This document shows, one piece after another, positions 3,087 through 22,600 of a stretch of DNA of 64,000 nt. The translations under genes and the position numbers were made by a program. The DNA comes from Nitrospirota bacterium (GTDB taxonomy: Bacteria > Nitrospirota > UBA9217). The notes under the pieces are model-generated. The model made no database searches, was not told the DNA's origin, and worked only from the letters and a program-made list of their open reading frames with translations. The stretch's first letter is position 1. The number at the start of each line of letters is the position of its first letter. Location: the NCBI GenBank assembly GCA_963751455.1, contig CAVVUN010000003.1, positions 374,507 to 438,506 on the forward strand. The letters run 5' to 3'.

Positions 3087-4115
3087 ATGACCACATTAAG
3101 TGCAAGAGACCGCGTGTTGAAGCTCTTCGCGGGAGAAGAGGTGGACCGGCCGCCGTGCTTCAGCGGCATGGGTAATGTAACCACCGAGGGGTTGAAGTCG
3201 CTCGGTCAGAAGTTCGCGGCCACGCATCTTGACGCAAAAATGATGGCCGCGGCCGCGGCAAGCACATTCAAGCTCTTCGGGTTCGAGTGCGGGGTCTTAC
3301 CGTTCGACCTGTGCATCGAAGCAGAGGCGTTGGGCTGCGAAATCAACGTGTATGCGCACTCTGAGGACCTTCTCTATCCTACCATCAAGAAGAAACTGAT
3401 CCACAACGAGGCTGAGATGGAAATTTCCATCCCTTCCAATATTTCCGAACGCGGCCGGGTCCCGCTGATGAGGGACGCGATCGGGCTCCTCAAGAAGGAC
3501 ATCGGCTCACAAACAGCAATCGGTTCGTACGTTCTGGGGCCTTTCACGCTGGCCGGCCAGGTAATGGAGCTGAACGACCTTCTGAAACTTTCCTTCAAAA
3601 AGCCTGACAAGATCGGCAAGCTCCTTGACCAGCTCTCCGATGTCATTATCCAGGTAGCCGGAGAGTACGAGAAGGCCGGCGTCGATTACATCACCGTGCG
3701 CGAAATGGGAGCGACTTCCGACGTTCTCTCCCCCCGCGTGTTCAAGAGCCTGATCCTGCCGTACCTGAAGAAGATCTTCGACAAGCTTACGGTGCCCAGT
3801 GTGCTGCACATATGCGGCAAAACAAACGATATCGCTCCGTTCATGGTCGAGAGCGGCGCCAGGGCAATAAGCGTGGACCAGAAGAACGACGTAGCTGAAA
3901 CAAGAAAGAAGCTTGGTCCCAAAACGCTTATCTTCGGAAACTATGACCCCTACAACGTGCTGGTTGCGGGCACGCCGGAGCAGGTTCGAGTGACGATCAA
4001 TAAATGCATGGACGACGGTGTAAGCGCCGTGTGGCCGGGATGCGACATCTGGCCTACGGTGCCGGTAGACAATTTCACAACGATGATGGATCAAGTCAGA
4101 AAGTTCAGGAGGTAA
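3087..4115 (+). CDS. Second MtaA/CmuA-type methyltransferase
   Basis: PFDLCIEAEALG, GPFTLA, LHICG and WPGCD motifs; SD aggagg. Confidence 0.88.
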   Translation: MTTLSARDRVLKLFAGEEVDRPPCFSGMGNVTTEGLKSLGQKFAATHLDAKMMAAAAASTFKLFGFECGVLPFDLCIEAEALGCEINVYAHSEDLLYPTIKKKLIHNEAEMEISIPSNISERGRVPLMRDAIGLLKKDIGSQTAIGSYVLGPFTLAGQVMELNDLLKLSFKKPDKIGKLLDQLSDVIIQVAGEYEKAGVDYITVREMGATSDVLSPRVFKSLILPYLKKIFDKLTVPSVLHICGKTNDIAPFMVESGARAISVDQKNDVAETRKKLGPKTLIFGNYDPYNVLVAGTPEQVRVTINKCMDDGVSAVWPGCDIWPTVPVDNFTTMMDQVRKFRR

Positions 4116-4118
4116 TCC

Positions 4119-4811
4119 ATGGCAACGGAAGAGAAGAAGAAGGAGCTTTTGGAGAAACTGCGGAACGCCGTTATCCAGTACGATGAAGATACGTCGAAAG
4201 AGGCCGCTCATGAAGCCCTCAAGGAGGGAATAGAGGCGAACGACGCGATTTTCAACGGCCTCGTCAGCGGTATGGTGGAGGTGGGCAAAATGTTCGAGGC
4301 CCAGGAGTATTTCGTCCCGGAGCTGCTGATGTGCGCCGACGCGCTTTATGCAGGCCTCGACATCCTGAAGCCCCATGTCACGCAGCTCGACCTCGGGGTA
4401 AAGGGGTCGGTCGTAATCGGTACGGTCGAAGGAGACGTCCATGATATCGGCAAGAACATCGTAAAGATGATGTTCGACGTTGCCGGCTTCACGGTCTATG
4501 ACCTTGGCCGCGACGTACCGCTCGATAAGTTCGTTGCCGAACAGATGCGCACTGACTCGGACCTTGTCTGCCTGTCCGCGATGATGACCACGACCATGAC
4601 GGGGATGAAAAAAGTCATCGATGACCTGCGGACCAAGAACCCGAACGTCAAGATCATGATCGGCGGCGCGCCGGTTTCGCAGGATGTGGCCGACAAGTAC
4701 GGCGCGGACGGCTATGCCAAGGATGCGACAAACGCGCTCAAGGACGCCATCAACATGGTTGCGTCCCTGAAGAAAATGAAGGATGAGGTTGAAGCAAAGA
4801 AGGCAAAATGA
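4119..4811 (+). CDS. Methyltransferase corrinoid protein (MtaC/MtbC family)
   Basis: Cap domain EYFVPELL, B12 motif GDVHDIGKNIV, SAMMTTT, IGGAP. Confidence 0.92.
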   Translation: MATEEKKKELLEKLRNAVIQYDEDTSKEAAHEALKEGIEANDAIFNGLVSGMVEVGKMFEAQEYFVPELLMCADALYAGLDILKPHVTQLDLGVKGSVVIGTVEGDVHDIGKNIVKMMFDVAGFTVYDLGRDVPLDKFVAEQMRTDSDLVCLSAMMTTTMTGMKKVIDDLRTKNPNVKIMIGGAPVSQDVADKYGADGYAKDATNALKDAINMVASLKKMKDEVEAKKAK

Positions 4812-5488
4812 AGACCGAGCTCAGAGATGAGTTGCTGAATCAGGGTGCTGCCGTCGTCGGCTTTGCGTGCCTCAAAGGCTACATGAGCGGGGAAATCAGC
4901 CATCTGGAGACGGCTGTATCCATCGGCGTGGATCGGAGATTGAACGAGAACACGCTCAGCCTGCTGATGAAGCTGCAAAAGCGAACTGTCCGAGTTCTCA
5001 AATCCCGTGGATTCCGGACGCTCGCCATACCGCCTGATTCAGACCGCAAAAAAGGCACTTTCATCTCGAAGCTTTATTCGCTCTTTAACCACAAAATGGC
5101 TGCAACCTCCGCGGGCCTGGGTTGGATAGGGAAGAACGGGCTTCTCATCAATCGCGAATTCGGCCCCCGGCTCTCGCTCGTAACAGTGCTGACCGATGCT
5201 GCAATTGATTCGGACATGCCGGTGGAACACTGCTTGTGCGGGGAGTGCAGTCTCTGCGTGCAATACTGTCCATCCCACGCCATCACGGGATCTGAATGGT
5301 CGCGCTCTTCACCCTTCGTGGAACTGGTGCGGCTGAATGCATGCAGAAGTCACAAGGCGACAAAACGGCTGACCGAGGGAAAACCGAATTGCGGTCTCTG
5401 CATCAATATCTGTCCATACGGCAGGAAGGACGATACGGCGACTAAAATAGTTAACCACGGAGACACAGAAGCACGGAGAAGAGATTAA
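4808..5488 (+). CDS. QueG/reductive-dehalogenase-like cobalamin/Fe-S protein
   Basis: HKMAATSAGLGWIGKNGLLI...GPRL, CGECSLCVQYCP and CGLCINICP; ATGA overlap with the corrinoid gene. Confidence 0.75.
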   Translation: MKTELRDELLNQGAAVVGFACLKGYMSGEISHLETAVSIGVDRRLNENTLSLLMKLQKRTVRVLKSRGFRTLAIPPDSDRKKGTFISKLYSLFNHKMAATSAGLGWIGKNGLLINREFGPRLSLVTVLTDAAIDSDMPVEHCLCGECSLCVQYCPSHAITGSEWSRSSPFVELVRLNACRSHKATKRLTEGKPNCGLCINICPYGRKDDTATKIVNHGDTEARRRD

Positions 5489-5628
5489 GTCTCTATCAAT
5501 TAAAGTCTGATATATTGTTGACGCTTCTCCCGGCGTTTCCACCTGCGGCCAGCGTTTAAGAGTGCGAAGCGCGAATGCAGGCTGTGCCTCCGTGGTGAAG
5601 CTTGATTCTTACGTTTTTTGGAGGGTTC

Positions 5629-7614
5629 ATGCTTAAGAAACATAAAGTGATATTCCAGCCTTCGGGCAGGCGCGGTGAGGTGGAGGAAGGCAAAACGATT
5701 CTCCAGGCCGCCCAGTCCCTTGGCGTCGACATTGAAGCGCTCTGCGGCAACAAGAAGGTCTGCGGCAAATGCAAGGTCCGTATCGAAGAGGGCTACTTCG
5801 AGAAGGACAACATCGATTCCGGCATGGCCCACATCTTTCCAGCAGAGCCGTCGCCTGATGAACTGAAGCACATAAAACCGCAGGACGGGCCCGGCATAAG
5901 GCTCGCCTGTCAATGCGAGGTCCGGGGAGACGTCAAGGTGTTCGTTCCCGAACGTTCGCGTGCAGGCAAGCAGGTCGTGCGCAAGGCTGCCAAAGAGCTT
6001 ACGATCAAGATCGACCCCGCGGTAAAAAAGTACAATGTCGAGCTCAAAGCGCCGACACTCCATGAGATGACGACCGGCGATTGGGAGCGGGTTCTCAAGT
6101 TCCTCGAAGAAGATTACGGCCTCAAGGACCTGACGTTCGATTATCTGGTGCTGAAGGGCCTCCAGGACGCTCTGCGCAAAGAAAGCTGGAAAGCGACTGT
6201 TACGGTCTGGATGGACAAGGAAATCGTTAAGGTCGAGCCCGCCTTTGTCGAGCCGAGCTACGGACTTGCTGTTGATATCGGCACCACGACCTGCGTCGGA
6301 TATCTCACGGACCTGAACACGGGCAAGGTCGTGAACACCGAATCCATGATGAACCCGCAGGTGCCCTACGGCGAGGACGTGATGTCGCGCATCACCTACG
6401 CCATGAGCAATCCCGGAGTCGGTCTGGAAACGATGCAAAAGGCGATCATTCAGGGCTTGAACGAAATCATCGAACGCGTGGTGAAGGATATCGCAAAGGA
6501 CGGCCCGAACCCGGGTTACGTAATCGACGACCTTACGATCGTTTTCAATACCGCGATGCATCACATCTTTCTGGGGCTGAACCCCGAGTATATCGGACGC
6601 TCGCCCTTCATCCCCGCGGTCCAGAGCTCGCTCGACATTAAGGCGCGCGATCTCGGTCTCAGGATCAATCCGGCGTCGTACATTCACGTTCTTCCGATTG
6701 AAGCCGGCTTTGTGGGCGCGGACAATGTGGGCGTCTTGATCGCGGAGGAGCCCTACAACCAGGATGAGAATGTGTTGATCATCGACATCGGGACCAACGG
6801 CGAACTTCTCCTGGGCAACCGCAACAGGGTCTGTTCTACGTCCTGCGCGACCGGCCCTGCTTTCGAGGGTGCCCAGATCAAGTTCGGCATGCGGGCTGCT
6901 CCTGGAGCGATCGAAACGGTCGAAATCGATCCGGTAACCAAGGAAGCGCGTTATAAAGTGATCGGAAGGACGGACTGGTCCGTGCCGCATCAGCAGATGA
7001 ACACGAAAGGCCTCTGCGGCTCAGGCATTATCCAGATCGTTGCGGAGATGTTCAAGGCCGGCATCATCGACAAATCCGGCAGGTTCGTAATGGACCTTGG
7101 CACTCCGCGCGTCAGGAAGGACGCCGAGGGCAGGCCCGAATACGTGCTGGCCTGGGCATCCGAGACTTCGATCGGACAGGATGTGACCGTGACCCAGGGC
7201 GACGTGCGCGCTCTCCAGCTTGCAAAAGGCGCCCTCTATACCGGAGCGAAGCTCATGATGAAAAAGCTTGGCATCACGACGCTCGATCGGGTTATCCTTG
7301 CAGGCGCTTTCGGGAGCCATATCGACCGCGAAGCGTCGCTCACGCTCGGTCTGTTTCCGGACTGCAGCCTTGACAAGGTTTACGCGGTCGGCAACGCGGC
7401 AGGCGACGGCTCTCGCATGGCGCTCCTGAATCGCGGCAAACGCAAAGAGGCAAACGATAGGGCACGATGGGTGGAATTCGTGGAGATCGCGACAGACCCC
7501 GCGTTCGAGAAGGAATTCATGATGGCGATGCATATTCCGCACATGAAGGATAAGTTCCCGAACCTGAAAGAGTTGCTCGAAAAATCCAAGAGCGCCGTCG
7601 AGATAAAAGCGTAG
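5629..7614 (+). CDS. ATP-dependent reductive activator of corrinoid proteins (RACo/RACE, ASKHA domain with N-terminal 2Fe-2S)
   Basis: CGNKKVCGKC...RLACQ ferredoxin domain; DIGTTT, DIGTNGE, GPAFEG, GLCGSG, LAGAFG, GNAAGDG motifs. Confidence 0.92.
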   Translation: MLKKHKVIFQPSGRRGEVEEGKTILQAAQSLGVDIEALCGNKKVCGKCKVRIEEGYFEKDNIDSGMAHIFPAEPSPDELKHIKPQDGPGIRLACQCEVRGDVKVFVPERSRAGKQVVRKAAKELTIKIDPAVKKYNVELKAPTLHEMTTGDWERVLKFLEEDYGLKDLTFDYLVLKGLQDALRKESWKATVTVWMDKEIVKVEPAFVEPSYGLAVDIGTTTCVGYLTDLNTGKVVNTESMMNPQVPYGEDVMSRITYAMSNPGVGLETMQKAIIQGLNEIIERVVKDIAKDGPNPGYVIDDLTIVFNTAMHHIFLGLNPEYIGRSPFIPAVQSSLDIKARDLGLRINPASYIHVLPIEAGFVGADNVGVLIAEEPYNQDENVLIIDIGTNGELLLGNRNRVCSTSCATGPAFEGAQIKFGMRAAPGAIETVEIDPVTKEARYKVIGRTDWSVPHQQMNTKGLCGSGIIQIVAEMFKAGIIDKSGRFVMDLGTPRVRKDAEGRPEYVLAWASETSIGQDVTVTQGDVRALQLAKGALYTGAKLMMKKLGITTLDRVILAGAFGSHIDREASLTLGLFPDCSLDKVYAVGNAAGDGSRMALLNRGKRKEANDRARWVEFVEIATDPAFEKEFMMAMHIPHMKDKFPNLKELLEKSKSAVEIKA

Positions 7615-7852: not shown

Positions 7853-8170
7853 ATGACAACGGTAAATATAAATACAGGGGCATGCGGGTATACTGTTACG
7901 ATAACAGCAGAAAAAGCCGCTGACGGCAAGATAAGAATTACCCTGGAAACCGAGTGTGAAATGGTCAAGAAGATGCTCGAGGACATCCAGGTCCTCGACC
8001 GTTTCACGCCCTTCAGCGGGTTTCTGAATAATCCGGTGTTCCAGTCCGCAGCGAAACATCTGAAACACCCTGCCTGTATTGTGCCTGCTGGCATTCTCAA
8101 GGCCGTCGAAGTGGAAGCGGGCTTGAATGTCGCACACGACGCGAGCATCATTTTCGAAAAGCAAAAATAA
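7853..8170 (+). CDS. Small conserved hypothetical protein (DUF6951-like, Cys/His motif)
   Basis: GACGY...ETECE...HPACIVP.GILKAVEVEAGL; start chosen at ATG 7853 because the upstream extension is repeat DNA. Confidence 0.65.
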   Translation: MTTVNINTGACGYTVTITAEKAADGKIRITLETECEMVKKMLEDIQVLDRFTPFSGFLNNPVFQSAAKHLKHPACIVPAGILKAVEVEAGLNVAHDASIIFEKQK

Positions 8171-8305: not shown

Positions 8306-9004
8306 ATGGGGAAAATATTGATACTGGCCGCATACAGTGTCTATGCGGCCTTCTGGGTCCGTTTTTTTTTACATGCGCTCGTCTGGTGGCGCGCACTGCA
8401 CCGGCTTGACGCCGTTGTCTCCGCGCCTCAAGCGTCGCGGTTGAAGGCTTATGCCCTTACCGGCCTGGATGTTCTGTTCCTCGGCAGACTGTTAAAAGTA
8501 AATGCCGCGCTTTGGCTCGGTGAATGGGTATTCCATGTGACCTTTTTTCTGGTCCTTGCGCGTCATCTGAGGTATTTCCTGGATCCGGTCCCGTCTTGGG
8601 TCTGGTCTGTCCAGACACCGGGCTTAGTCGCAGGCTATATTCTGCCGCTCTCATTGGCATACATTCTTCTCGTGCGGATTCTCGGAAAGCGGCAGAAGTA
8701 TGCTTCTCCCGGGAATTTTTTCCTCCTTACGATAGTGCTTATGATCAGCTCCCTCGGCGTTCTCATGAATTTCTACAAACCAAATCTCGTTGACGTAAAA
8801 CTGTTCATTCTCGGGATAATAGGCTTTTCACCGAAGCCTGCTCCTGAAAGCGTTCTGTTCATCATTCATTTTTTACTGTTTCTCGTACTCGTCCCGCTGC
8901 TCCCGACTCATATTTTTACGGCGCCGCTCGTTATGCTCGAGGCGAAAAAACGCGAGCAGGCGCTGCATCTCATAATGCACGATGCAAACGAGGCAGGCCG
9001 CTAA
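8306..9004 (+). CDS. NarI/HdrE-like membrane cytochrome b subunit
   Basis: Five hydrophobic segments; four candidate haem His (FHV, RHLRY, IHF, THIF); adjacent to a CCG-domain gene. Confidence 0.7.
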   Translation: MGKILILAAYSVYAAFWVRFFLHALVWWRALHRLDAVVSAPQASRLKAYALTGLDVLFLGRLLKVNAALWLGEWVFHVTFFLVLARHLRYFLDPVPSWVWSVQTPGLVAGYILPLSLAYILLVRILGKRQKYASPGNFFLLTIVLMISSLGVLMNFYKPNLVDVKLFILGIIGFSPKPAPESVLFIIHFLLFLVLVPLLPTHIFTAPLVMLEAKKREQALHLIMHDANEAGR

Positions 9005-9029: not shown

Positions 9030-10229
9030 ATGAAGAATATACGTAAATTCACCGAAGAGCTTTCTTCCCTTCAGATCCTCAAGATCGATGCCTGCACTCA
9101 GTGCGGCGAATGTCTCCGGCACTGCCCGGTCCAGGATGTTACCGGGAATCCGATTGTTTCGCCGCCGGAGAAGATCCGAATGTTCCGCGAATTCATCCGG
9201 GCAAGTGAGGGACTGAAAGCGACGCTCTTCGGCCCCCGTGAAGTCGACCGGAAGCTGCTCGAGGACTTCACACGCGCTGTCTATGAATGTACTACCTGCG
9301 GCGCCTGCGGACAGAACTGCCCGGTGGGCATCTTCAGCCAGCGGCTCTGGCCCGTTCTGAGAAAAGAAATGGTGAAGCGGGGCCTCGGTCCGATCGGGGT
9401 CCAGACCGGCATGCCGAAGGCCATAAAGAATTCCGGCAATCCGTACGATAAACCGGCAGCCGAACGCTACAAGCCCTGGCTTCCGGAAAACGTGAACCTC
9501 GCGGAGAGGGCGGATATCGCTTACTATGCCGGTTGTACAGGCGCGTACGAAGCCCAGCCGATGGTGCGGGGCGATGTGCTGGTCCTGAACGCAATCGGAC
9601 AGGATTTCACAATGTTGCCGCCTGAAGAGGAGGTATGCTGCGGCTTTCCGCTGTTCATTACCGGTCAGTATGACCTGCTGAAGGAGCTTATAACAAGACT
9701 CGTTGACGGATACGCGGCAAGAGGGGTCAAAACTCTGGTATGCTCGTGTCCGTGCTGTGTTAATATAATGACCAGAGACTGGCCGCTCTATTATGGTCAG
9801 CAGCTTCCCTTCAGGATCAGGCACATCTCCCAGTTTGTCGTGGAAGCCATAAACAGCGGGAGGCTCCGCTTCAAGCAGTTGAGCGAGTCGGTGATCTACC
9901 ATGACCCCTGTTATCTTTCGCGCGGCGTAGGTGTGATCGAAGAGCCGCGGGCCGTGCTCAGGAGCATCCCGGGTGTAACGCTGCTGGAATTCGAACGTCA
10001 CGGCCTGAATTCACGGTGCTGCGGTTCGGGGGGCGCTGCCCGCAAAGTATATCACGAGAACGCCATTGCGATGGGAAGGTTGACGATCGACGAGGCCGTT
10101 GCCAAAAAAGCGGACCGCCTGATCCTGAGCTGTCCGGCCTGCTACGCCAAGGTAAACGAAGCAATGCACGGATATAAGAACCAGATCCGGATCACGGACA
10201 TCATGGAGCTGGTAAGCGGATTGATTTGA
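9030..10229 (+). CDS. HdrD-like Fe-S oxidoreductase (2x[4Fe-4S] plus two CCG domains)
   Basis: CTQCGECLRHCP, CTTCGACGQNCP, YAGC/VCCG/SCPCC and HDPC/RCCG/SCPAC. Confidence 0.85.
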   Translation: MKNIRKFTEELSSLQILKIDACTQCGECLRHCPVQDVTGNPIVSPPEKIRMFREFIRASEGLKATLFGPREVDRKLLEDFTRAVYECTTCGACGQNCPVGIFSQRLWPVLRKEMVKRGLGPIGVQTGMPKAIKNSGNPYDKPAAERYKPWLPENVNLAERADIAYYAGCTGAYEAQPMVRGDVLVLNAIGQDFTMLPPEEEVCCGFPLFITGQYDLLKELITRLVDGYAARGVKTLVCSCPCCVNIMTRDWPLYYGQQLPFRIRHISQFVVEAINSGRLRFKQLSESVIYHDPCYLSRGVGVIEEPRAVLRSIPGVTLLEFERHGLNSRCCGSGGAARKVYHENAIAMGRLTIDEAVAKKADRLILSCPACYAKVNEAMHGYKNQIRITDIMELVSGLI

Positions 10230-10395: not shown

Positions 10396-11652
10396 ATGAG
10401 TCATTTTTCCATTAAATGCAGAGCGTGCGGCAAGAAACTTACTAATTCATACTGCGCTTTCTGCGAACACTGCAAAGACGCGCTCCTCGTGACTGATTAT
10501 CAAGACAGCCGCTTTGCTGAGCGGCCGTCCGAAGGCGTCTGGCGCTTTAACTGGCTACCGGTCCACGATAAGGGCTTCGCGCAACCCGGTCCTCTCGTAT
10601 ACCGCTCGGGCGGACTTTCCGGCGTTGTGGGCCTCGAAAACCTCTATATAGCTTTTAACGGCTATTGGCCTGAAAACGGCGCCCTGCTCGAGACCTGTAC
10701 ATTCAAGGAATTCGAGGCAGCAGTGGTTCTTCAGAATGCACGGGAGAACGGGGTCGAGGGTCTGATTGTAGCATCTGCCGGAAACACGGCGCGCGCTTTC
10801 GCTCACCTGTCCGCGCTCACAGGCTTTCCGGTCATCATTGTGGTTCCCCGAATGTGCGTTTCCGAGATGTGGTACGGCGAACCGCGATCGATCGTACACA
10901 CACTCGCAGTCGGAGACGGTGATTACTCGGATTCGATCGATGTTGCAAAGCGGATTGCCATGACGCTCGGCTTTCCCTTTGAAGGCGGAGTAAAAAACAT
11001 CGCGAAACGCGACGGTCTCGGGATCGTTATGATGGAAGCTGTCTCTAAAATCGGCACTTTGCCGGATCATTATGTACAAGCAGTCGGGAGCGGAACCGGC
11101 GCCATAGGCGCGTGGGAGATGGCTGGGCGCTTCGTACGGGACGGCAGGTTCGGCTCCCGGCTGCCGGTCCTTCACTTGGCGCAGAACCTGCCCTTTGCGC
11201 CAATGGTCAACGCGTGGCGAAAGAGCAGCCGTACTCTGTTTCCCGATGATCTGAACCCAGAATTGATTTCGCACATTACAACGCGGGTCCTCTCCACTCG
11301 GTATCCGGCGTACGCGGTAAAGGGCGGCGTCTACGATGCGCTGGTCGCGACCAATGGAAAAATGTACGGCATAGAAAACGACGATGTGTATGCGAGCATG
11401 GACCTGTTCCAGAAAACCGAAGGAATCGACATCGTACCCGCATCGGGTGTGGCTGTTGCCGCGCTGATCAAGGCGGTCAAAACGGGCGCTATCGGGAAGA
11501 AAGAAACGGTCCTTCTGAACATTACCGGCGGGGGCGAAAAACGCCTGCGTCAGGATAAAAAGACCTACTCCGTTGTACCGCACTATATTTCAAAGACGGT
11601 AAGCGAAAAAGAGATCGAGGAGACGCTGTGCAACGTCCTGAAGAAGAACTGA
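10396..11652 (+). CDS. Cysteate synthase (threonine-synthase-like PLP enzyme)
   Basis: FNGYWPE.GA...TCTFKEFEA (PLP Lys), ASAGNTARAF, EGGVKNIAKRDGLG, QAVGSGTG, LLNITGGG; overlaps a sulfopyruvate decarboxylase gene. Confidence 0.85.
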   Translation: MSHFSIKCRACGKKLTNSYCAFCEHCKDALLVTDYQDSRFAERPSEGVWRFNWLPVHDKGFAQPGPLVYRSGGLSGVVGLENLYIAFNGYWPENGALLETCTFKEFEAAVVLQNARENGVEGLIVASAGNTARAFAHLSALTGFPVIIVVPRMCVSEMWYGEPRSIVHTLAVGDGDYSDSIDVAKRIAMTLGFPFEGGVKNIAKRDGLGIVMMEAVSKIGTLPDHYVQAVGSGTGAIGAWEMAGRFVRDGRFGSRLPVLHLAQNLPFAPMVNAWRKSSRTLFPDDLNPELISHITTRVLSTRYPAYAVKGGVYDALVATNGKMYGIENDDVYASMDLFQKTEGIDIVPASGVAVAALIKAVKTGAIGKKETVLLNITGGGEKRLRQDKKTYSVVPHYISKTVSEKEIEETLCNVLKKN

Positions 11653-12860
11653 TTAATATTCTCAAAAAGAACCGGGTTGATTTTACCGCCTCCCTGCCGT
11701 GCGAGAAGATCAAGACGCTTCTTGAAATGCTGCCGACGGCCTTTCAGCATGTTTATCTGACGAGAGAGGAAGAAGGCGTCGGTATCTGCGCGGGCGCCTC
11801 GCTTGCCAATAGACGCCCTGTAATGTTTGTTCAGAGTTCAGGCATCGGAAACATGATCAACGCTTTGCTTTCCCTCACCGCATTCTATCAGTTTCCACTC
11901 GCCCTGTTTGTCAGCCGCCGCGGAGTCTATCAGGAAAAAATAGAGGCGCAGTTGCCCATGGGCCAGAGACTGCCCGGCATACTGTCAGGTGCCGGTATCA
12001 TGTGGACCGAGCTCAATACAATCGATGACTTGAAGAAAGTGGAACAAGAGCTGCAGGAAGTTTACTCGAACAGCAGGATTCATGCGTTTTTGATGAGCCC
12101 GAAGGTGTGGGAGGGGTCAAATTGCGGATCTCGGAGACCTGCACCCAGCGGTGACGAGTGCGAACGCGCGAGTCTCGCACCCAACGCCTTCGAGTGCGAT
12201 TGCGCGAGAGTAGGGTGTGCAGGGCGTTCGGATTGCGGAATGAAAGGCGCAAAAAAAAGTTCTCAATCCGGACCCTGGACCCTGGACCCCGCATCATCAT
12301 CGCCCTCGCTCACCCGCTATGACATTATCAATCTCGCAGCGCCGTACCTCGAGGGCAAAGTCGTGGTAAGCAACCTGGGCTGGCCTTCCAAAGAACTCTT
12401 TTCCGTCAGACACCAACCCTCCAACTTCTACATGCTCGGAAGCATGGGCATGGCAACCCCAATCGGCCTCGGCATTGCTCTGACGTCGAAAAAAAAGGTC
12501 ATCGTGATCGACGGAGACGGAAGCCTCCTCATGAACCCCGGCACGCTTGCCACTGCCGCATCTCTCGCCCCGAGGAATCTAACCATCCTTTGCATTGATA
12601 ACGGCGCTTATGGATCAACCGGTAATCAGCCGACTCTGACAGGAAGCTGTGTCGACTTGGAGCACGTTGCGCGCGGATTCGGTTTTGTGAATACGGTGAA
12701 AGTTGCCGCGGCCGATAAACTCGTGAACGTAATGAAGCAGCCTCCGAAAGAATTAACGTTTATCCATGCCCTTGCAGTGCCCGGCAACAAGGATGTGCCG
12801 AACATCACTACACATCATCTCGAGATCAAGAGACAGGTACAGGGATTTTTGAGAGGGTGA
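11628..12860 (+). CDS. comDE: Sulfopyruvate decarboxylase, fused alpha-beta
   Basis: Alpha: SLPCE, TREEEGVGICAGA, QSSGIGNMINAL; beta: NFYMLGSMG, ThDP motif DGDGSLLMN...DNGAYGSTGNQ. Confidence 0.85.
   Translation: MQRPEEELINILKKNRVDFTASLPCEKIKTLLEMLPTAFQHVYLTREEEGVGICAGASLANRRPVMFVQSSGIGNMINALLSLTAFYQFPLALFVSRRGVYQEKIEAQLPMGQRLPGILSGAGIMWTELNTIDDLKKVEQELQEVYSNSRIHAFLMSPKVWEGSNCGSRRPAPSGDECERASLAPNAFECDCARVGCAGRSDCGMKGAKKSSQSGPWTLDPASSSPSLTRYDIINLAAPYLEGKVVVSNLGWPSKELFSVRHQPSNFYMLGSMGMATPIGLGIALTSKKKVIVIDGDGSLLMNPGTLATAASLAPRNLTILCIDNGAYGSTGNQPTLTGSCVDLEHVARGFGFVNTVKVAAADKLVNVMKQPPKELTFIHALAVPGNKDVPNITTHHLEIKRQVQGFLRG
12137..12226 (+). mobile_element. Two nested 45-bp CCTGCAC-family elements in-frame within the ComD-ComE linker
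   Basis: Outer acctgcacccagcg...cgcgcgag|tgcagggcg is interrupted at 12173-12217 by tctcgcacccaacg...gagtagggtg. Confidence 0.65.
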
Positions 12861-13943: not shown

Positions 13944-14525
13944 TTATAACTTCCCCGTCTTCTGATACTCCTGCACATAAACCTTGATGGCACGCAGTAT
14001 AATCCAGTCCAGGGTCACGCTGTTATCGGATGCGATTTGAACGAGGGCGTCGATGGTCTCTTTGTCGATGGTGGGTTGAACTGTTGAGGATGATTCCTCG
14101 GAAGAAGAGGGCGCCACTGCTTCCGGGCTCTCGACTGCGGCTTCGGGATTTCGTTTTTGATGCTCCTTACGAAGAAGTCCCATCAAACTCTGCACGTCGC
14201 CGCCCATGATCGCTTGCCGCACATCTTCGGGAACTTCAATAGGCTTCTCATCCGGCTGTTGACGGGGCTCTCCTATCTTTGCTTCAGGCGACTTCATCCC
14301 CGGACCGATGCCGGGCATCATTCCGGTCATGCCCATCATCATACTTGCCAGGTTCCGGGCGTATTCGTTATCAGGCATCTCATCTTTCAGGAATTGGTCC
14401 AGCTTTCCTTCTGCCGCAGCCTGTGCCATGCGGTCTGCAAGGAGTGATCCCTGTTCCTCTTCCTGCTCAAAATTATTCTTTCTTCCGAAGGCCTTGTTCG
14501 GCGGCTTGGGTAACGGTTTGTCCAT
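13944..14525 (-). CDS. Hypothetical protein, possible C-terminal ribbon-helix-helix
   Basis: 193 aa ORF, SD aagg; C-terminus IDKETIDAL...VTLDWIILRAIKVYV. Confidence 0.6.
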   Translation of the reverse strand: MDKPLPKPPNKAFGRKNNFEQEEEQGSLLADRMAQAAAEGKLDQFLKDEMPDNEYARNLASMMMGMTGMMPGIGPGMKSPEAKIGEPRQQPDEKPIEVPEDVRQAIMGGDVQSLMGLLRKEHQKRNPEAAVESPEAVAPSSSEESSSTVQPTIDKETIDALVQIASDNSVTLDWIILRAIKVYVQEYQKTGKL

Positions 14526-16088: not shown

Positions 16089-17762
16089 CTACCTCGCGAG
16101 CAATTTCCTCACATACAGCTGCTGCACAATCGACAGCAGGTTGCTCAGTGTGATATAGAGGAGCAGCCCCGCCGGCAGCCACGCAAAAAGAAAAATAAAG
16201 GCAACGTTCATGAACATCATGATTTTGGCCTGCTGCGGGTCGGGAGTGGCCGAAGTCATCTTCATCGTGGCAATCATGCTGACTCCCATAAGAACCGGCA
16301 GGATATAGAAGGGATCGTGAACGGAAAGGTCCTTTATCCAGAATGAAATGAACGGCGCCTGCCGAAGCTCGATCGAGACCGACAGTACGTTGTAGAGTGC
16401 GACGAAGAAGGGCAGCTGCAGAAGCATCGGAAGACAGCCGCCGAGCGGATTCACCTTGTGCTCCTTGTACATCTTCATCATCTCCTGGTTCATCCGCTGC
16501 GGATCTTTCTTGTATTTTTCGCGAAGAGCAGTGATCTGCGGCTGGATCTTCTTCATTTCCTCCATGGCTGTCGCGCTCTTCAGCGAAGGATAGAAAAGTA
16601 AAGCCCTAACCACAATGGTAAGAAGGATGATCGCAATGCCGTAGTTGCTCGTTATTCTGTAGAACTGCTGAAGCAGCCAGAACATCGGCTTCGCCAGTAT
16701 TCCGAACCAGCCGTAGTCCACCATCTGCTCCAGTCCATGACCCTGCTCTTTGAGCAAAGTATAACTCTTCGGTCCTGCATAAAGCGCATAGGTACGCGAA
16801 TCCGTTTTTTCTTTTACCGTCAGACTCGTTGTAAGAAGGTCTCCGGTTTTCGCTGCTCCCGGTGTTTTTGTGCTGGTTAGTATTCCGGGGGTTCCATTGA
16901 CCATCGTAGCGGTAAAGTACTTGTCCTCGTGCCCGAACCATCCTATCGTACCGGTGTATTGCGCCTCGCCCTTGATTTTATCCAGCTTGTCGGTCGTAAC
17001 TTTTCCGTCCACGTTTGCTACCAGCCCCACGCGGCCGCTCGCGTCGCTGCTCAGCTTGTCCGCAATTCCGAAGTCCGTGCCGAGAAAAATATTGTACCCG
17101 TCAAGGGCTTTCGTGTTCACGGCAATGTCAACCTTGTAGTTGTTGTTGTGAAAAGTCAGTCGCTTTTCAATTGTGATTCCGCCCGGACCCGCATACGTCA
17201 AAACAAGAGTGTCCGTGGGCTTGTCCTTGCTGAGCCGGATGCCTTCCGAACTGGCACGGTATTCAACACGTGAAATCTTGTACAACGCCTTGTCAAGCGG
17301 AATAAGTGTCAGCGGTTCAACGATGTCTTTTCGGTCGATATTATATGCCGGTACGAGCTGCACGTTGCCAAGTTCCCGTTGCGGCTTCTCTTCCTTCGGC
17401 GCCTGTCCGGTTATCTTTTTATACGTCGCTATAAGACCGACCTCTTTTGTGTCCGCTTCGCGATGACCTTTCAGCTCTATCCCCGTGATCACGCCGCCTG
17501 CCGTATTGACCACAGCCTTCACGAGGTCTGTTTCAATGACAATCTCCCTGCCCTTTGCAGCCTGTTCAATCCTGGCCGCTGCCGCTTCCGGGGTAAGCGC
17601 CGGCTGCGAAGCCTGCTTTTCGGTCTTTTCGACCGCCTTTTCTTCCATGGGTGCCTCGGGAACCGGGCCTTTCACGGACGGCTCAGGAGCGAAGAAACGC
17701 ACGTATACCAGGAATACTATCAACGACAGGGACAGTGCTAGAATAAAACGACGTGTTTCCAT
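16089..17762 (-). CDS. yidC: Membrane protein insertase YidC
   Basis: Periplasmic domain, DYGWF, NPLGGCLPMLLQLP, PAGLLLY; canonical operon. Confidence 0.97.
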   Translation of the reverse strand: METRRFILALSLSLIVFLVYVRFFAPEPSVKGPVPEAPMEEKAVEKTEKQASQPALTPEAAAARIEQAAKGREIVIETDLVKAVVNTAGGVITGIELKGHREADTKEVGLIATYKKITGQAPKEEKPQRELGNVQLVPAYNIDRKDIVEPLTLIPLDKALYKISRVEYRASSEGIRLSKDKPTDTLVLTYAGPGGITIEKRLTFHNNNYKVDIAVNTKALDGYNIFLGTDFGIADKLSSDASGRVGLVANVDGKVTTDKLDKIKGEAQYTGTIGWFGHEDKYFTATMVNGTPGILTSTKTPGAAKTGDLLTTSLTVKEKTDSRTYALYAGPKSYTLLKEQGHGLEQMVDYGWFGILAKPMFWLLQQFYRITSNYGIAIILLTIVVRALLFYPSLKSATAMEEMKKIQPQITALREKYKKDPQRMNQEMMKMYKEHKVNPLGGCLPMLLQLPFFVALYNVLSVSIELRQAPFISFWIKDLSVHDPFYILPVLMGVSMIATMKMTSATPDPQQAKIMMFMNVAFIFLFAWLPAGLLLYITLSNLLSIVQQLYVRKLLAR

Positions 17763-17775
17763 TTAACCTCCGGGA

Positions 17776-17985
17776 TCAATGAACAGGGTCGTATCCGCCG
17801 GGATGAAACGGATGACATTTGGCGACTCTGCGCACTGTCATCCAGATCGCTCTCAAAACGTTTTTTTTCGTGAAGGCCTCAATCGCATACTCTGAACAGG
17901 TCGGGGTAAACCGACAGGTCGGCGGGAAAACCGGAGACAGATAGCGACGGTACAGACCAATCGTGAAGATGAACGCTTTTTTCAT
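17776..17985 (-). CDS. yidD: Membrane protein insertion efficiency factor
   Basis: [11 protein letters not shown]...[12 protein letters not shown]. Confidence 0.96.
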
Positions 17986-18350
17986 GATGCGGTGCCTTCC
18001 GGCTTCAGATTGCGAAGAGCGGTGCGCTGCAGAATTTTTTGGACGGTTTTCAAAATCTCTTCATAACCGGCGGAGGAAATTTCGCGCCGTGCGACAAAGA
18101 CGAGGTCATACCCTGACGAATAACCTTGTAAAACTTTCATGATGCAGGCCCGGATGCGGCGCCTCAGCCGGTTTCTCCCGACTGCATTTGCCAGCTTCTT
18201 GCTGACCGATATTCCGACCCTGAAATTTCCTGTGTCGTTCTGCGCATAAAACAGAGAAAGACCGTCAACCGACAGTCTTTTTCCTTTCATGACAGAGACA
18301 AATTGCTTGTTTGTTCGTATGCGCTCGCTTTTTCGATATGCGTACGGCAT
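17982..18350 (-). CDS. rnpA: Ribonuclease P protein component
   Basis: [18 protein letters not shown] (RNR motif). Confidence 0.95.
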
Positions 18351-18368
18351 GCGCGTTGGGCAGTCGAT

Positions 18369-18506
18369 TTATACCGCGAGCCGTTTTCTTCCTTTTGCCC
18401 TGCGGCGGTTAATCGCCTTTCTGCCGCCCGCGGTCTCCATCCTCGATCTGAAACCCTGCGATCTTTTCTGTTTGAGATTGCTCTTTTGCGCTGTTGTTTC
18501 GGACAT
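18369..18506 (-). CDS. rpmH: 50S ribosomal protein L34 (not in the ORF track, 45 aa)
   Basis: Translated by hand: [45 protein letters not shown]; SD aaggag. Confidence 0.93.
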
Positions 18507-18540
18507 CACCCTGCTCCTTCGCGTTTTTGAATAGGGGGGT

Positions 18541-18568
18541 ATTATAAGACAAAACGCAAATATGTCAA
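18541..18568 (-). promoter_or_regulatory. Sigma70 promoter of the rpmH operon
   Basis: TTGACA-N16-TATAAT on the minus strand. Confidence 0.7.
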
Positions 18569-18633
18569 GCGAAAAACGAGCCTTCTTCGAAGGTTACAGA
18601 ATGAAGAGAATTTCTCATCGGCGGGGAGAAGGA

Positions 18634-18663
18634 CAGGACCCCGGGAGGCTTCCCGGGGTCCTG
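18634..18663. terminator. GC-rich hairpin downstream of the SRPBCC gene
   Basis: caggaccccggga-ggct-tcccggggtcctg, perfect 13-bp stem. Confidence 0.55.
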
Positions 18664-18692
18664 CACGCACGGTTCACTAGTAAAACACGATG

Positions 18693-19385
18693 CTACGCTG
18701 CTCGCATCATCTCTCCGGACTCAATCATGTTCTTGAACTGACGCAGTTCTTTTTTCAGCTGTTTTTCTGTTATATATTGGAACAGTTTTGAGGTTGCTCC
18801 TATGGCGCCCGGGACCGCATAGCTGGCCTTGAAAAACAGTTCCGTGCCGCCGGGAACTCTCTTGAATTCGACACTGCCCTGGTTCTGCACTTCGGCGCTG
18901 GGAAGGGAATGCCAGCTGATCAACTGGTTCGGAATGTCCTCGATCATATCCGCATCCCATTCGAAACTGAATCCGCCCGGCACGCTGGCTACCCAGTGAG
19001 ACCGGCGGCTGTCGAGAACTTTTACTGATTCAAGATGCTCCATGAAGCGCGGCAGGTTCTCGAAGTTATGCCAGAAGCGATATACCTCTTCGGGGCTCCG
19101 ATTTATGATAATACTCGTTTCTACATCCACGCTGCTCACCATTGTGCTTGTGTCCATACCCATTGCCTGGTAAAGCGGGTCGTAACCTGTCGTCCCCCTG
19201 TAGAACAGATAGCCGCCTATGATAGAGAGAGCGGCCTTGGCCTGCACGGTATCTTGAGTCAGGCCGTACAGGGCGAGCGCACTGCCCCCCAAAATTGAAG
19301 CCCAACGCTCGGCTTTTCCGACATTGATGTTGTTTGTCGAACCCTTCATTCCTTTGAGGATATCTGATTTTGTACTGACTGGCAT
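18693..19385 (-). CDS. SRPBCC/cyclase family protein with N-terminal DUF2892-like region
   Basis: NVGKAERWAS; INRSPEEVYRFWHNFENLPRFMEHLESV. Confidence 0.85.
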   Translation of the reverse strand: MPVSTKSDILKGMKGSTNNINVGKAERWASILGGSALALYGLTQDTVQAKAALSIIGGYLFYRGTTGYDPLYQAMGMDTSTMVSSVDVETSIIINRSPEEVYRFWHNFENLPRFMEHLESVKVLDSRRSHWVASVPGGFSFEWDADMIEDIPNQLISWHSLPSAEVQNQGSVEFKRVPGGTELFFKASYAVPGAIGATSKLFQYITEKQLKKELRQFKNMIESGEMMRAA

Positions 19386-19631
19386 GATTGGTTTCCTCCT
19401 TTTGCTTGTCTCTGAAATTCTTTTGGAGGCCCGCGGCCTCCTATTCAAATTCTAGCATCATCTTACAGGATTTTTTTTCTTATTGAAAACATGTGAGACT
19501 AAAGGCAGCCAGCGAGCATCCAATTGATAACAAAGACACGGCATTTTTCTCGTCCTTTGACTTTTAAAATATAATTTGGTAGTCTGCGTCCAGTAAAAAG
19601 ACATTAAACCAGTGCCGATAAAGTTTTTGAA

Positions 19632-20072
19632 ATGAAAAAAGGGGTCGATTTCATAGGTGTAGGAACAGGTGCTGTTATCCTTAACGGAGACGGCAAGGTG
19701 TTCCTCGCCCTACGGGGGAGGGAAGCGCGCAATGAATCCGGCAAATGGGAATTCCCCGGCGGCTGCGTCGAGTTCGGAGAAACGCTCGAACATGCACTTG
19801 CTCGCGAGGTCATGGAAGAATACGGCTTCGAGATCGAAGTGTTGGAGCTTCTCGACGTAGTAAATCACATCATCCCGGCAGAAAAACAGCATTGGATCTC
19901 GCCAACCTTTCTGTGCCGATTCAGGGGCGGAACAGCTGTTATAAAAGAGCCTCACAAGTGCGATAAAATCGGATGGTTCAGGCTTGATGAGATACCTGAA
20001 CAGCACCTTACAATTGCTTCTAAGAAAAGCCTGGAAAGCCTGAGAAAAATACGAGCTCATCGAGAGGAGTAA
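19632..20072 (+). CDS. Nudix hydrolase
   Basis: Nudix box GGCVEFGETLEHALAREVMEEYG. Confidence 0.92.
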   Translation: MKKGVDFIGVGTGAVILNGDGKVFLALRGREARNESGKWEFPGGCVEFGETLEHALAREVMEEYGFEIEVLELLDVVNHIIPAEKQHWISPTFLCRFRGGTAVIKEPHKCDKIGWFRLDEIPEQHLTIASKKSLESLRKIRAHREE

Positions 20073-20107
20073 AAGTGAAGGGAAAGTCAAAAAGGCAAGG
20101 AGACAAG

Positions 20108-20776
20108 ATGTCTTCCCTTTATCCGGTCAATGCCCTGCTTATTCTGGGGCCTACCGGTTCTGGGAAAAGCCCTCTCGGTGAATTGATAGCCACACGCGGT
20201 TTTCTCGGAAGACGCTCGCATCACCTGGATTTCGGATCGGAACTTCGCTCAATCTCTTCCGGGATTGGCGCTGATTCGTACTCCCGGTCTGAAAGGGATT
20301 TTATACTCGGCGTTCTGGAAAGCGGTCTACTCCTGGAAAACGAGCACTTCCGCCTTGCGAGAAAGATCATAGAGTTGTTTCTTGAGCGCTCTCGTTTCCG
20401 TCCGGGAGACGCTCTCCTTCTGAACGGGATACCGCGGCACACCGGCCAGGCGCGCGACATCGCGGCTATTGCGAACGTTCAGGCAGTCATTGTCCTTAAC
20501 TGCTCCATTGACTCAATTATTATAAGAATAGAGGAAAATACAGGCGGTGACAGGCTCGGACGGAATGATGATACACGGCAGTTGGTCCAGAAAAAACTTG
20601 ATATCTACCGGGAGCGGACCGCGCCCCTGGTGGAACACTATGCGGCAGGCGGATGTCGTATCTATCACATCGATATCAATGAGAGAACCTCATCAGGATC
20701 AGCGTATCACACGCTTTCATCGCTTGCCGCCGCTGACCCACCAATCGCCTTTGTCGCTGAACCACCACAGCGATGA
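20108..20776 (+). CDS. Adenylate-kinase-family nucleoside monophosphate kinase
   Basis: P-loop GPTGSGKS, LNGIPR, RNDD...KLDIY. Confidence 0.75.
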   Translation: MSSLYPVNALLILGPTGSGKSPLGELIATRGFLGRRSHHLDFGSELRSISSGIGADSYSRSERDFILGVLESGLLLENEHFRLARKIIELFLERSRFRPGDALLLNGIPRHTGQARDIAAIANVQAVIVLNCSIDSIIIRIEENTGGDRLGRNDDTRQLVQKKLDIYRERTAPLVEHYAAGGCRIYHIDINERTSSGSAYHTLSSLAAADPPIAFVAEPPQR

Positions 20777-21292
20777 ATCTGTTTCGAGAATTGTCTTTGC
20801 AAGCTGTTTTGCCGAATCCGTCACAAGCCGTCTTAGTGAGAACTCAAGCCATTCGTCGGCATATTTGTTTCCCAGGTCTTTGTATTCCTTGAGTGCCAAA
20901 ATCATCTCGAGCTGATCCGCATCCCGGGCCAGTTTCGACTCTTCGGTGTTTCCTTCGGTGAATTCGAGAATGAGTTTCTTTATCTCTTCTCCGAACGGCA
21001 GTGTTTGTGCGAGATCATCCACGGCTTTTTTCTCATGCGCTTCGACGTATTTCTTGTTTACATAGTTAAGATCACCGGTCCGCGCCTCCGGCAGATCGTG
21101 AAAAAGACACATTTTGAGTATTCTGTCGACGTCTATGCCTGCAGCCATCTTACCAAGCGTATAGCCGATATAGGTTGTTCGAAAAATATGGTCCGCAACC
21201 GATTCCACGCCAGACCCAAGAAACTGAAACCCGCTTCGGGGCGTCCGTTTCAACATGCCCGCCTCAAATAAGAAATTAGCAATGTTTTTCAT
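20717..21292 (-). CDS. HD-domain hydrolase (YfbR/5'-deoxynucleotidase-like)
   Basis: ESVADH, FHDLPEARTGD, DADQLE. Confidence 0.88.
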   Translation of the reverse strand: MKNIANFLFEAGMLKRTPRSGFQFLGSGVESVADHIFRTTYIGYTLGKMAAGIDVDRILKMCLFHDLPEARTGDLNYVNKKYVEAHEKKAVDDLAQTLPFGEEIKKLILEFTEGNTEESKLARDADQLEMILALKEYKDLGNKYADEWLEFSLRRLVTDSAKQLAKTILETDSSLWWFSDKGDWWVSGGKR

Positions 21293-21329
21293 GACAGTCT
21301 TGAACTCTTCTCTAATTTTTTTTATTTTT

Positions 21330-21610
21330 AAAATTAATCACAAAAGATATTTTGCTATTTCCTGACCGATATCCACAAGCCGGCAGTTGTCTTATTACTA
21401 AAGACTGTATATATAAATAATTAGTAGTAGTAGTAATATAGTGTGTGAAAATGTTGGAACTCCGATCAATGCTTTGAAAAGGATATAAAAAATGTAAGCA
21501 TTAAGCTGTAGAAACAGATGTGAGTTTTTGAAGAAACAGGTGTTGATATCCTTGCCGGCCGAAATGTTCACAGGTTATCCAGCGACAACCCACACAGATC
21601 TGTGCATTAA
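21330..21610. other. Probable oriC unwinding region (AT-rich DUE, DnaA-trios, degenerate DnaA boxes)
   Basis: atatccaca 21369; (TAG)4TAA 21422-21436 abutting tgtgaaaat 21444 and tgttggaac 21452; more box-like 9-mers at 21541, 21564, 21575, 21601. Confidence 0.7.
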
Positions 21611-21960
21611 CCAGGAGGCCAGGAAAATCTACGGCCGGAAAGAATATGAAGATGAATGTGAAATACTGTCTGGCCCGCGTCTGCGCCGTTATTGATGACG
21701 AGCCGGTACCCGTTCGTATCGAGTCCTTTTTGATGTACAATCTTTTTCGCCGCTAAAAAGAGGTGCCCGATGAGATCCTTGTCGGTTTCTGCCATGCTGT
21801 GAATGTCAGAAATGTGTTTTTTTGGAACGACGAGAATGTGGACCGGCGCCTGCGGCTTCACATCCTGAAACGCTGTTGCGAGATGGTCCTCATACACGAT
21901 TACGGAGGGAACTTCTTTTTTGATAATCTTACAGAAAAGGCATTTAGAATCAGAACTCAC
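21607..21960 (-). CDS. Histidine triad nucleotide-binding protein (HinT-like)
   Basis: [22 protein letters not shown]; GTG start. Confidence 0.93.
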
Positions 21961-22298: not shown

Positions 22299-22600
22299 AA
22301 TTGATCCGATTTTTATCATAAATCGAAATAAAAGTCCAGAACCTTGCTGCTCGTCCAAAACGGAAAGAGCGAGGCTGTTTCAGCAAGAAATATTGATACA
22401 TTCAAAAAAACGAAATTCACCCGAGACGCTGAGACACAGAGAAAAAAAGACCTTAAAGATGTCGTTTCCTACGCGCCCAGTGTGACACTGCGGTTAATCC
22501 GGCTTTTACGAGTCGAGCAAATATTTCTTTTACGAAAATGCGCCAAAAAAAACCGGCCTCTCTATGAGGACCGGTTATTATTAAACCTCGCTATGTCAGT

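Follow-up and report, generated by a model that had tools for sequence, protein, structure and literature searches.

We analysed a 64,000-nucleotide stretch of DNA from a Nitrospirota bacterium (assembly GCA_963751455.1, contig CAVVUN010000003.1; G000:C3:374507–438506, where G, L and C label genomes, loci and contigs and G000 is the source genome), referred to below as the window. It encodes a cysteate synthase (CS; 10396–11652, + strand, 418 amino acids) and a fused sulfopyruvate decarboxylase, ComDE (11628–12860, + strand, 410 amino acids), which form the 3′ end of a co-oriented operon of 13 genes. This operon, of a corrinoid methyl-transfer and HdrED-like type, is conserved across Nitrospirota. 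Coenzyme M (CoM) is a cofactor known mainly from methane-producing archaea. The explanation that fits the gene content best, and that we regard as reasonably probable, is that the pair leads to sulfoacetaldehyde, from which CoM would be made without a COG1900 protein and used as a methyl carrier and redox thiol without methyl-coenzyme M reductase (MCR).

The enzyme assignments of CS and ComDE, and their coupling, had been proposed in an original prediction made from the DNA letters, and both are supported. CS scored 483 bits with TIGR03844 (cut-off 324.9) and the ComD domain 185 bits with TIGR03845 (cut-off 148). CS retains the pyridoxal-phosphate lysine and phosphate-loop motifs (TFKE, SAGN and GSGTG), is 46–48% identical to archaeal CS proteins encoded beside MMP16, and is distinct from a separate housekeeping thrC (G000 C2:391693). 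ComDE is 41% identical over 409 amino acids to a Methanosarcinaceae ComDE that also adjoins MMP16; its ComE part carries a GDGS...N motif that is invariant in the alignment, and its score with the phosphonopyruvate decarboxylase model TIGR03297 (203.5 bits) is far under the cut-off of 312.5. The linker between ComD and ComE (window 12110–12310) is rich in cysteine, exceeds that of relatives by about 30 residues and shows no conservation.

The two open reading frames (ORFs) share 25 nucleotides (11628–11652), as predicted. The GTG start of ComDE lies in the last codons of CS, with GAGGAG 5 nucleotides 5′ of it, and homologous ComDE proteins start at the equivalent residue in an alignment. To place the pair in context we surveyed CS–ComDE loci, taking one genome per species and keeping the best 80 of 122 loci, of which 77 are bacterial and 3 are archaeal; nearly all of the bacterial records bear the title Nitrospirota. 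Six bacterial loci were unscorable owing to frameshifts or the lack of a ComDE in view. Among the 71 that remained, the overlap was 25 nucleotides in 38 and 28 nucleotides in 31, and its recurrence in 69 of 71 loci argues that it is not due to chance; a DsrE-like gene is inserted between CS and ComDE in the other two. ComDE followed CS in 70 of the 72 loci with at least 600 nucleotides downstream. By contrast, the genes of the three archaeal pairs lie 10–22 nucleotides apart. The CS tree has a very long outgroup and is mostly unresolved, and it supports no claim on donor or direction of transfer. Two records labelled Betaproteobacteria (L045) and Rokuibacteriota (L074) hold CS–ComDE pairs of the Nitrospirota type (79% and 68%), for which misbinning and transfer are both possible.

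According to the available text of PMC12068725, the enzyme known for the last step of archaeal CoM synthesis is the COG1900 protein MMP16/ComF, which L-ASST or uncatalysed sulfide chemistry may back up; the idea of a COG1900 protein as last-step enzyme also appears in the accessible part of PMC4045070. A whole-genome profile search of G000, which is 100% complete with 5.4% contamination, gave no match to PF01837. TIGR03287 matched ferredoxin regions only (28.6 bits or less), and an archaeal MMP16 query matched through its ferredoxin part alone. The same search methods recovered MMP16 in all three archaeal loci. We then surveyed 221 Nitrospirota genomes, each at least 90% complete, of which 39 have CS (38 above cut-off). 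PF01837 occurred in none of the 39, the single-contig genome G200 among them; the six genomes of 221 that do contain it, including G049 and G056, are all CS-negative. ComF/MMP16 and other COG1900 proteins were thus found neither in G000, searched genome-wide, nor in the 39 CS-positive genomes. The original prediction had noted that the window lacks an aminotransferase and a final-step gene; this holds for the 27 ORFs in positions 1–31.5 kb, which were scanned with domain and family models, the remainder of the window being reached by the whole-genome COG1900 searches alone. Its suggestion that the missing genes lie elsewhere in the genome fared unevenly. For the aminotransferase it is plausible, as G000 encodes a class V aminotransferase next to serA and gives 12 matches to PF00155, any of which may accept the substrate, and the absence of such a gene from the cluster is expected because sulfopyruvate transamination in Methanosarcina is carried out by a non-specific enzyme, according to the available text of PMC12068725. 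For the last-step enzyme it is unsupported by any PF01837 match, and no canonical gene for it, just upstream or farther away, was found in the genome-wide PF01837, TIGR03287 and MMP16 searches. Genes of the other CoM route and of methane formation were likewise not recovered: MCR (PF02249) was found in none of 8 CS-positive genomes and ComA (PF02679) in none of 5 genomes tested, G000 included in both sets, and tblastn of XcbA and XcbB against G000 gave no orthologous match, only lyase paralogs of 31–39% identity.

Upstream of the pair, the operon begins with a small receiver-like gene just outside the window, followed directly by MtaA1 (32–1060), an MtaA/CmuA-family protein resembling Zn-thiol methyltransferases (PF01208). 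All of the genes described here are on the + strand. MtaA1 scored 175 bits with NF004889, under the cut-off of 244, whereas the second paralog, MtaA2 (3087–4115), a member of the methylcobalamin:CoM methyltransferase family, reached 261 bits and matched M. mazei MtaA (4ay7) with E 2e-42; the HxC...C zinc motif is kept in both. Between them lie the genes for an AhpD/CMD-like protein (CMD; 1412–1855, with the longest ORF from 1298 and the conserved part from 1412) and for an MtrH/MtgA-family methyltransferase (2052–2999; PF02007; NF002142 326 bits, cut-off 287), which is predicted to transfer methyl groups from methyl-folate to a corrinoid. CMD (PF02627) carries a CSPRC-IIH motif, is 86–97% identical within its family and matches AhpD (5dik) with E 5e-6. 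Next come the cognate corrinoid protein (4119–4811; PF02310/PF02607), the sole one of its kind found in G000 (self match only at E<1e-8), a short QueG-like 4Fe–4S dicluster protein (4808–5488; TIGR00276 58.5 bits, cut-off 200) and a corrinoid reductive activator of the RACo/AcsV type (5602–7614; PF14574, PF17651, PF17650 and PF00111). The DUF6951 protein (7853–8170, longest ORF from 7634; PF22263) has three conserved cysteines and a histidine in a consensus of 60; a sequence search found no relative of solved structure, and the Atlas returned DUF6951 clusters alone. Directly before CS are an HdrE/DsrM-like membrane cytochrome b (8306–9004) with four conserved histidines (77, 87, 188 and 202; DsrM 59 bits, cut-off 300) and an HdrD-like protein (9030–10229) with two PF02754 domains, two 4Fe–4S motifs and two complete CCG motifs (TfrB 186 bits, cut-off 385).

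The full row of genes was present in 6 of 8 loci from the same family and partial in the other 2. Among the 46 loci whose upstream sequence extends over 9 kb or more, MtaA2, the corrinoid protein, the QueG-like protein and RACo were found in 43, and MtrH, DUF6951 and HdrD in 42. FolD occurred in 11 of 80 loci, and MetF stood ahead of the operon row in several. A histidine kinase, a sigma-54 regulator, a CobW-like GTPase and the small receiver-like gene recur ahead of the operon (here L001:13650–19909), and one strict sigma-54 promoter pattern had no match in the 740 nucleotides upstream of it. A third MtaA-like paralog (G000:C15:1155392–1156417, − strand; HQCG and PSCD motifs) is 31% identical to MtaA1 and unlinked to corrinoid genes. 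A literature search, with subscription papers mostly outside it, found no published description of this operon or of a cysteate route in Nitrospirota, and the available portions of PMC10681998, PMC13730134 and PMC10033605 make no mention of the operon.

Taken together, these genes suggest the following scheme. Judged from family membership, CS would combine phosphoserine and sulfite, to be supplied through the serA/serC-like and sat/dsrAB genes, into cysteate; a housekeeping enzyme would transaminate cysteate; and ComDE would decarboxylate the resulting sulfopyruvate to sulfoacetaldehyde, which would be finished to CoM without ComF. Methyl groups would then pass between methyl-folate and CoM by way of the MtrH-like protein, the corrinoid protein, RACo and MtaA2. 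Conjugation or oxidation of CoM might fall to MtaA1 and the AhpD-like protein, and HdrED could re-reduce CoM disulfides with quinol. G000 also encodes dsrAB, dsrMKJOP, sat and Wood–Ljungdahl corrinoid genes (by motifs and sequence), and the organism is therefore a likely sulfate reducer. Its dsrMKJOP genes are separate and adjoin dsrAB, and the HdrE- and HdrD-like genes of the operon are distinct from dsrMK.

Gene context makes CoM the likely product of the pair. A profile of divergent CMD relatives recovered at least 55 metagenome loci, 37 of the Nitrospirota type and 18 others. In 3 of the 18 non-Nitrospirota loci listed (L138, L157 and L158), a CMD gene whose product is 64–73% identical lies directly ahead of Xcb genes, and the Xcb pathway makes CoM by unrelated enzymes, as described in the available text of PMC9457059. 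The L157 proteins scored, against their NCBIfam cut-offs, 455/150 (XcbA), 297/280 (ComA), 558/575 (XcbC), 674/600 (XcbD) and 412/450 (XcbE); a relative of MtaA1 (41%) sits beside xcbE, and FolD, OsmC-like and second CMD genes are nearby. The presence of one CMD module beside two unrelated CoM routes is best explained, we infer, if the module uses CoM. In a further locus, L177, the order is CS, ComDE, an SsuA-fold gene, DUF2096, CMD and DUF6951. Of the other 14 non-Nitrospirota loci among the matches listed, 12 are shorter than 4 kb and two are considered below. The Atlas holds a Chloroflexota-rich cluster for the CMD family; the loci themselves are without taxon assignment. The full Xcb clusters (L157:9992–18692, L158:3858–13249 and L138) contain CMD and OsmC-like genes and an MtaA-like or MetE-like Zn enzyme, and stand beside cbb3-type oxidase-like genes with no alkene monooxygenase in view. 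An OsmC-like and DsrE-like gene pair is found at G000:C15:735087–736116 (L209); its relatives occur within or next to the operon of other Nitrospirota, and the Xcb clusters contain relatives too. CoM can serve as an antioxidant thiol in Methanosarcina, according to the available text of PMC12713407.

A different product is conceivable, although we consider it doubtful: another C2 sulfonate or a CoM analogue (for example isethionate, taurine or a directly formed methylthio compound), with the methyl block acting on a different thiol. The lack of a COG1900 protein in every CS-positive genome would fit such a product, as would the score of MtaA1 below the CoM-methyltransferase cut-off and the survival of the methyl block without CS in G049 and G056. 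Against this, the same CMD family and a relative of MtaA1 occur alongside the Xcb pathway, which is known to yield CoM, and the combination of two Zn-thiol methyltransferases with a two-CCG disulfide reductase indicates a thiol. Moreover, the 77 bacterial loci show no reductase or transaminase gene repeatedly next to the pair, in an inspection that included no IsfD or SauS model search.

To determine which genes follow the pair, we compared their distributions among the 221 genomes. An MtaA2 ortholog was present in 43, namely all 39 CS-positive genomes and G001, G052, G049 and G056, so that CS accompanies it in 39 of 43. In G001 and G052 the operon runs off the contig end. By contrast, G049 and G056 retain the part of the operon that extends from the receiver gene to DUF6951, including both MtaA genes, CMD and the QueG-like gene, with an HdrD-like gene nearby, and have neither CS nor ComA; where CS–ComDE would stand, this block continues into a radical SAM gene, then one for a SAM methyltransferase and one for a B12 radical SAM protein (L120 and L121). 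The best tracker of the CS–ComDE pair is a gene for a histidine-rich protein of the SsuA/Thi5 fold (G000 C3:367167–368105), 6.4 kb before the window and so beyond the view of the original prediction. Its ortholog occurred in 42 of 221 genomes, comprising all 39 CS-positive ones together with G001, G052 and G022, and was absent from G049 and G056. In 14 of 80 loci, some of them with the methyl block out of view, no more than 10 kb separated it from CS, and in L177 a 4-nucleotide overlap links it to ComDE. The methyl block kept in G049 and G056 without CS, ComA or the SsuA-fold gene shows that the block can occur where this synthesis route is lacking; there it may run on imported CoM or another thiol.

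Several observations weigh against our explanation, the retention of the block in these two genomes being one of them. The ComE domain falls slightly short of its curated cut-off (TIGR03846, 214 bits against 221.5), and CS has LSTRYP where aligned archaeal enzymes have LSNRxP. Of the 70 loci with 1.5 kb or more of upstream sequence, 5 lacked HdrD. Two non-Nitrospirota loci of 20 kb each, L179 and L182, contain a CMD gene, yet no CoM gene is visible in them. L-ASST, which may be the backup in M. acetivorans, is lacking in these bacteria. Finally, the surveyed Nitrospirota genomes are kin, and the co-occurrence counts are not independent.

The protein encoded by the tracking gene begins at the first beta strand and has no signal peptide (by inspection, with no predictor run), and no permease gene lies beside it in G000. 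It scored 94 bits with the SsuA/TauA family model, under the cut-off of 163.5, and its best solved match by sequence was TauA. Its structural model (pLDDT 96) matched SsuA/TauA first, followed by Thi5, which is an enzyme, and by the regulatory domain of CmpC, with TM scores of 0.73–0.79. An alignment of 104 sequences showed invariant H13, H79, E81, H121, D147, C257 and H305. Relatives were found in Methanoperedens, Hydrothermarchaeales, Hecatella and Asgard archaea. The protein could be an enzyme, a sensor or a chaperone. As an enzyme it would hold sulfoacetaldehyde while the cell's sulfide adds to it, the adduct or disulfide then being reduced by HdrED; this cytoplasmic last step, the one that we favour, is tentative and the weakest link of the scheme. 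Two of the three archaeal genomes with MMP16 also encode the protein (43–44%), which speaks against this role and indicates that it is not a simple replacement for ComF. The protein is tied to the cysteate route and is not a clean ComF substitute. In the archaeon G228, the SsuA-fold gene stands opposite genes for an ATPase, a HypB-like GTPase and a small cysteine-rich protein, a trio that resembles the one beside CoM genes in the available text of PMC12068725. A 3-kb contig in a Nitrospirota bin (L198, G121:C49), possibly a contaminant, carries HTH-like, second SsuA-fold and E1-like genes that resemble those of G228.

Uncatalysed sulfide chemistry, with the SsuA-fold protein as sensor, is an equally tentative option for the last step. 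As a full account, and a sub-case of our explanation that we find rather unlikely, CoM would be made without a dedicated last enzyme, by sulfide or thiols reacting with sulfoacetaldehyde, and the SsuA-fold protein would act with a second conserved protein as a cytoplasmic sulfonate sensor regulating CS–ComDE. That second protein (13944–14525, − strand), which the original prediction left unnamed, has no Pfam or NCBIfam match and a C terminus that looks like a ribbon–helix–helix regulator. Its gene was present in 36 of 221 genomes and in 34 of the 39 with CS, was absent from G049 and G056, and often adjoins the SsuA-fold gene; the two proteins may form a sensor–regulator pair. Uncatalysed formation of CoM is cited in the available text of PMC12068725, where the defect of an M. 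acetivorans MMP16 deletion is masked at high sulfide (1.5 mM), and dsrAB and sat are present in G000. Signalling would also fit the frequent position of the SsuA-fold gene beside the histidine kinase, the sigma-54 regulator or the 13944–14525 gene, the HTH-like gene in L198, the SsuA fold of the cytoplasmic regulatory domain of CmpC and the coexistence with MMP16 in archaea. However, G049 and G056 retain the kinase and the sigma-54 regulator but not the SsuA-fold gene, the gene is coupled to ComDE in L177, and its many invariant histidine, cysteine and glutamate residues would exceed the needs of plain binding.

For the last step itself, an operon protein is a less probable option, and an unlinked gene is given the same low weight. 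The original prediction had proposed, as one option, that an adjacent protein (CMD-, QueG-, DUF6951- or HdrD-like) performs the step, and for this reductive thiolation the QueG-like, DUF6951, HdrD-like, CMD and Zn-containing MtaA-paralog proteins can be considered; as a full account this is an improbable sub-case of our explanation. The candidates are co-oriented with the pair in 42–43 of the 46 long loci, and DUF6951 and CMD join CS–ComDE in L177, in which the corrinoid genes are not in view. QueG-type B12/Fe–S enzymes perform reductive cleavage of C–O bonds, chemistry that would suit such a step. Yet the QueG-like, DUF6951, CMD and both MtaA genes persist in G049 and G056 without CS, with an HdrD-like gene nearby, and the persistence of CMD, the QueG-like protein and DUF6951 makes them more likely users of CoM than its synthase. 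The QueG-like and HdrD genes, in turn, are not in view in L177. CMD was lowered as a candidate because it persists without CS and accompanies Xcb, a CoM route without sulfoacetaldehyde.

An alternative for the whole operon, which we find hardly credible, is that it stands in for methionine synthase in the absence of MetH and MetE. G000 has no PF02574 or PF01717 match. Among the 39 CS-positive genomes, PF01717 occurred in none and a short stand-alone PF02574 match in two, with no full MetH; the operon repeatedly includes or adjoins MetF and FolD. However, G000 contains AcsC/D genes and a MesB-like gene (C11:7870–8864, − strand; HCC...D...PSCG), identified by a motif taken from the available text of PMC7005905 and without a MesB query, and MesB is listed for Nitrospirae in Table S1 of PMC7857596, in the part available. 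In addition, there are whole families with neither MetH nor MetE nor the operon (for example, f4 0/5 and f25 0/5). The methionine-synthase reading was dropped once the MesB-like motif gene was found in G000. Profile searches with PF01717 at E<=10 returned nothing in G000, and two weak PF01717 proteins used as queries missed the MesB-like gene. This gene lies in two reading frames, as do split hemE-like, folP-like and acs genes, which suggests assembly indels.

The pair might instead serve sulfonate catabolism, with sulfoacetaldehyde split into sulfite and either acetyl phosphate or acetaldehyde, or cysteate might enter sulfonolipids; we judge both very improbable. A serine-palmitoyltransferase-like gene (C7:19619; 568 bits, cut-off 640) encodes an enzyme that could in principle accept cysteate, but sulfonolipid synthesis would not require a coupled ComDE. 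As to catabolism, which the original prediction had raised as the reading that would undo it, the best Xsc score was 344 against a cut-off of 676, from a gene among ilv genes, and the 8 CS-positive genomes searched yielded no glycyl-radical enzyme, leaving that route unsupported; making cysteate merely to release sulfite would also be futile. The lipid-type genes around the serine-palmitoyltransferase-like gene (G000:C7:16901–21821, L204) form a possible sphingolipid or sulfonolipid cluster.

Consistent with synthesis of CoM through cysteate, the system resembles the type 2 archaeal pathway, of which it is not a full member, MMP16 and MCR having been searched for and not found. In M. acetivorans that pathway comprises cs (MA3297), comDE (MA3298) and MMP16/ComF (MA3299), according to the available text of PMC12068725. 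Both have CS followed by a fused ComDE in a cluster, with the aminotransferase outside it; the Nitrospirota system differs in its bacterial host, in the absence of MMP16, L-ASST and MCR, and in the joining of the pair to a methyl-transfer and HdrED operon. The Xcb pathway of Xanthobacter autotrophicus Py2 (described in the available text of PMC9457059) likewise makes CoM in a bacterium, and Xcb genes elsewhere adjoin AhpD-like genes and a relative of MtaA1; its enzymes are non-homologous, however, and G000 has neither ComA/XcbB nor XcbA and no visible context of alkene oxidation. The archaeal-like comABCDE genes of 'Anaeropigmentia' (Desulfobacterota) and 14 other bacterial genomes have no known use in the available text of bioRxiv 10.1101/2021.03.22.436540 and follow the phosphoenolpyruvate (PEP) route, unlike the cysteate route here, whose operon includes putative user genes of a kind that the same text does not describe.

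The methyl-transfer part of the operon can be compared with the MtaA/MtbA/MtsA, RamA and HdrED proteins of Methanosarcina. The MtaA Zn motif, a corrinoid protein, an activator, and a cytochrome b with a two-CCG subunit are shared. By contrast, we recognised no substrate enzyme of the MtaB/MttB type in the operon, there is no MCR, and a soluble MtrH-like protein, MetF and FolD tie the operon to folate. The HdrD- and HdrE-like proteins do not reach the curated cut-offs of those related models to which they gave a match. Their motifs predict a heterodisulfide reductase, but there is no MCR to form CoM-S-S-CoB. The operon and the Cmu, Mec and Cdm haloalkane methyltransferase systems have in common methyltransferases of the URO-D family together with a corrinoid protein, an activator and a methyltransferase on the folate side. 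In the available text of PMC13222342 on these systems, no CoM-synthesis or HdrED genes are reported, and CdmB, described there as having no zinc, matched MtaA2 weakly (E 5e-4). With respect to the SsuA/TauA binding proteins, Thi5 and the CmpC domain, the tracking protein shares the fold within the TM range given above; it differs from SsuA/TauA in the absence of a signal peptide and, in G000, of an adjacent permease, in an identity of 16–18% and in its invariant His/Cys/Glu set.

The last step of the archaeal-type pathway has been assigned to MMP16 only recently and its backup is unexplained, and bacteria with the first CoM steps but no COG1900 member offer a natural test of an alternative last step, with a short gene list. 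If CoM is the product, a cofactor of methanogens extends to sulfate reducers without MCR (39 of the 221 Nitrospirota genomes sampled); cs/comDE and CoM would then be weaker as markers of methanogens, and the operon would point to an undescribed methyl–sulfur metabolism. A broader possibility, which we offer as speculative, is that the SsuA/Thi5-fold protein is a metalloprotein acting as a second, COG1900-independent CoM synthase or its sulfur partner, common to Nitrospirota and several non-methanogenic archaea. CoM would then be a common thiol of anaerobic bacteria, and the AhpD-like/MtaA-like module, fitting either the cysteate or the Xcb route, would pass methyl groups to and from folate without methane in sulfate-reducing Nitrospirota.

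Other features of the region and genome were also recorded. The genes yidC, rnpA, dnaA, dnaN, gyrB and gyrA lie downstream of the operon (window 16089–31483), which indicates that the operon adjoins the likely replication origin region. An ORF resembling a reverse transcriptase/maturase, of the group II intron type by sequence, is present at L001:5385–6749 (− strand). At G000:C15:162101–163479 (L206), hgcA (393 bits, cut-off 275) and hgcB (121 bits, cut-off 99) both scored above their cut-offs, so that G000 is a predicted mercury methylator.

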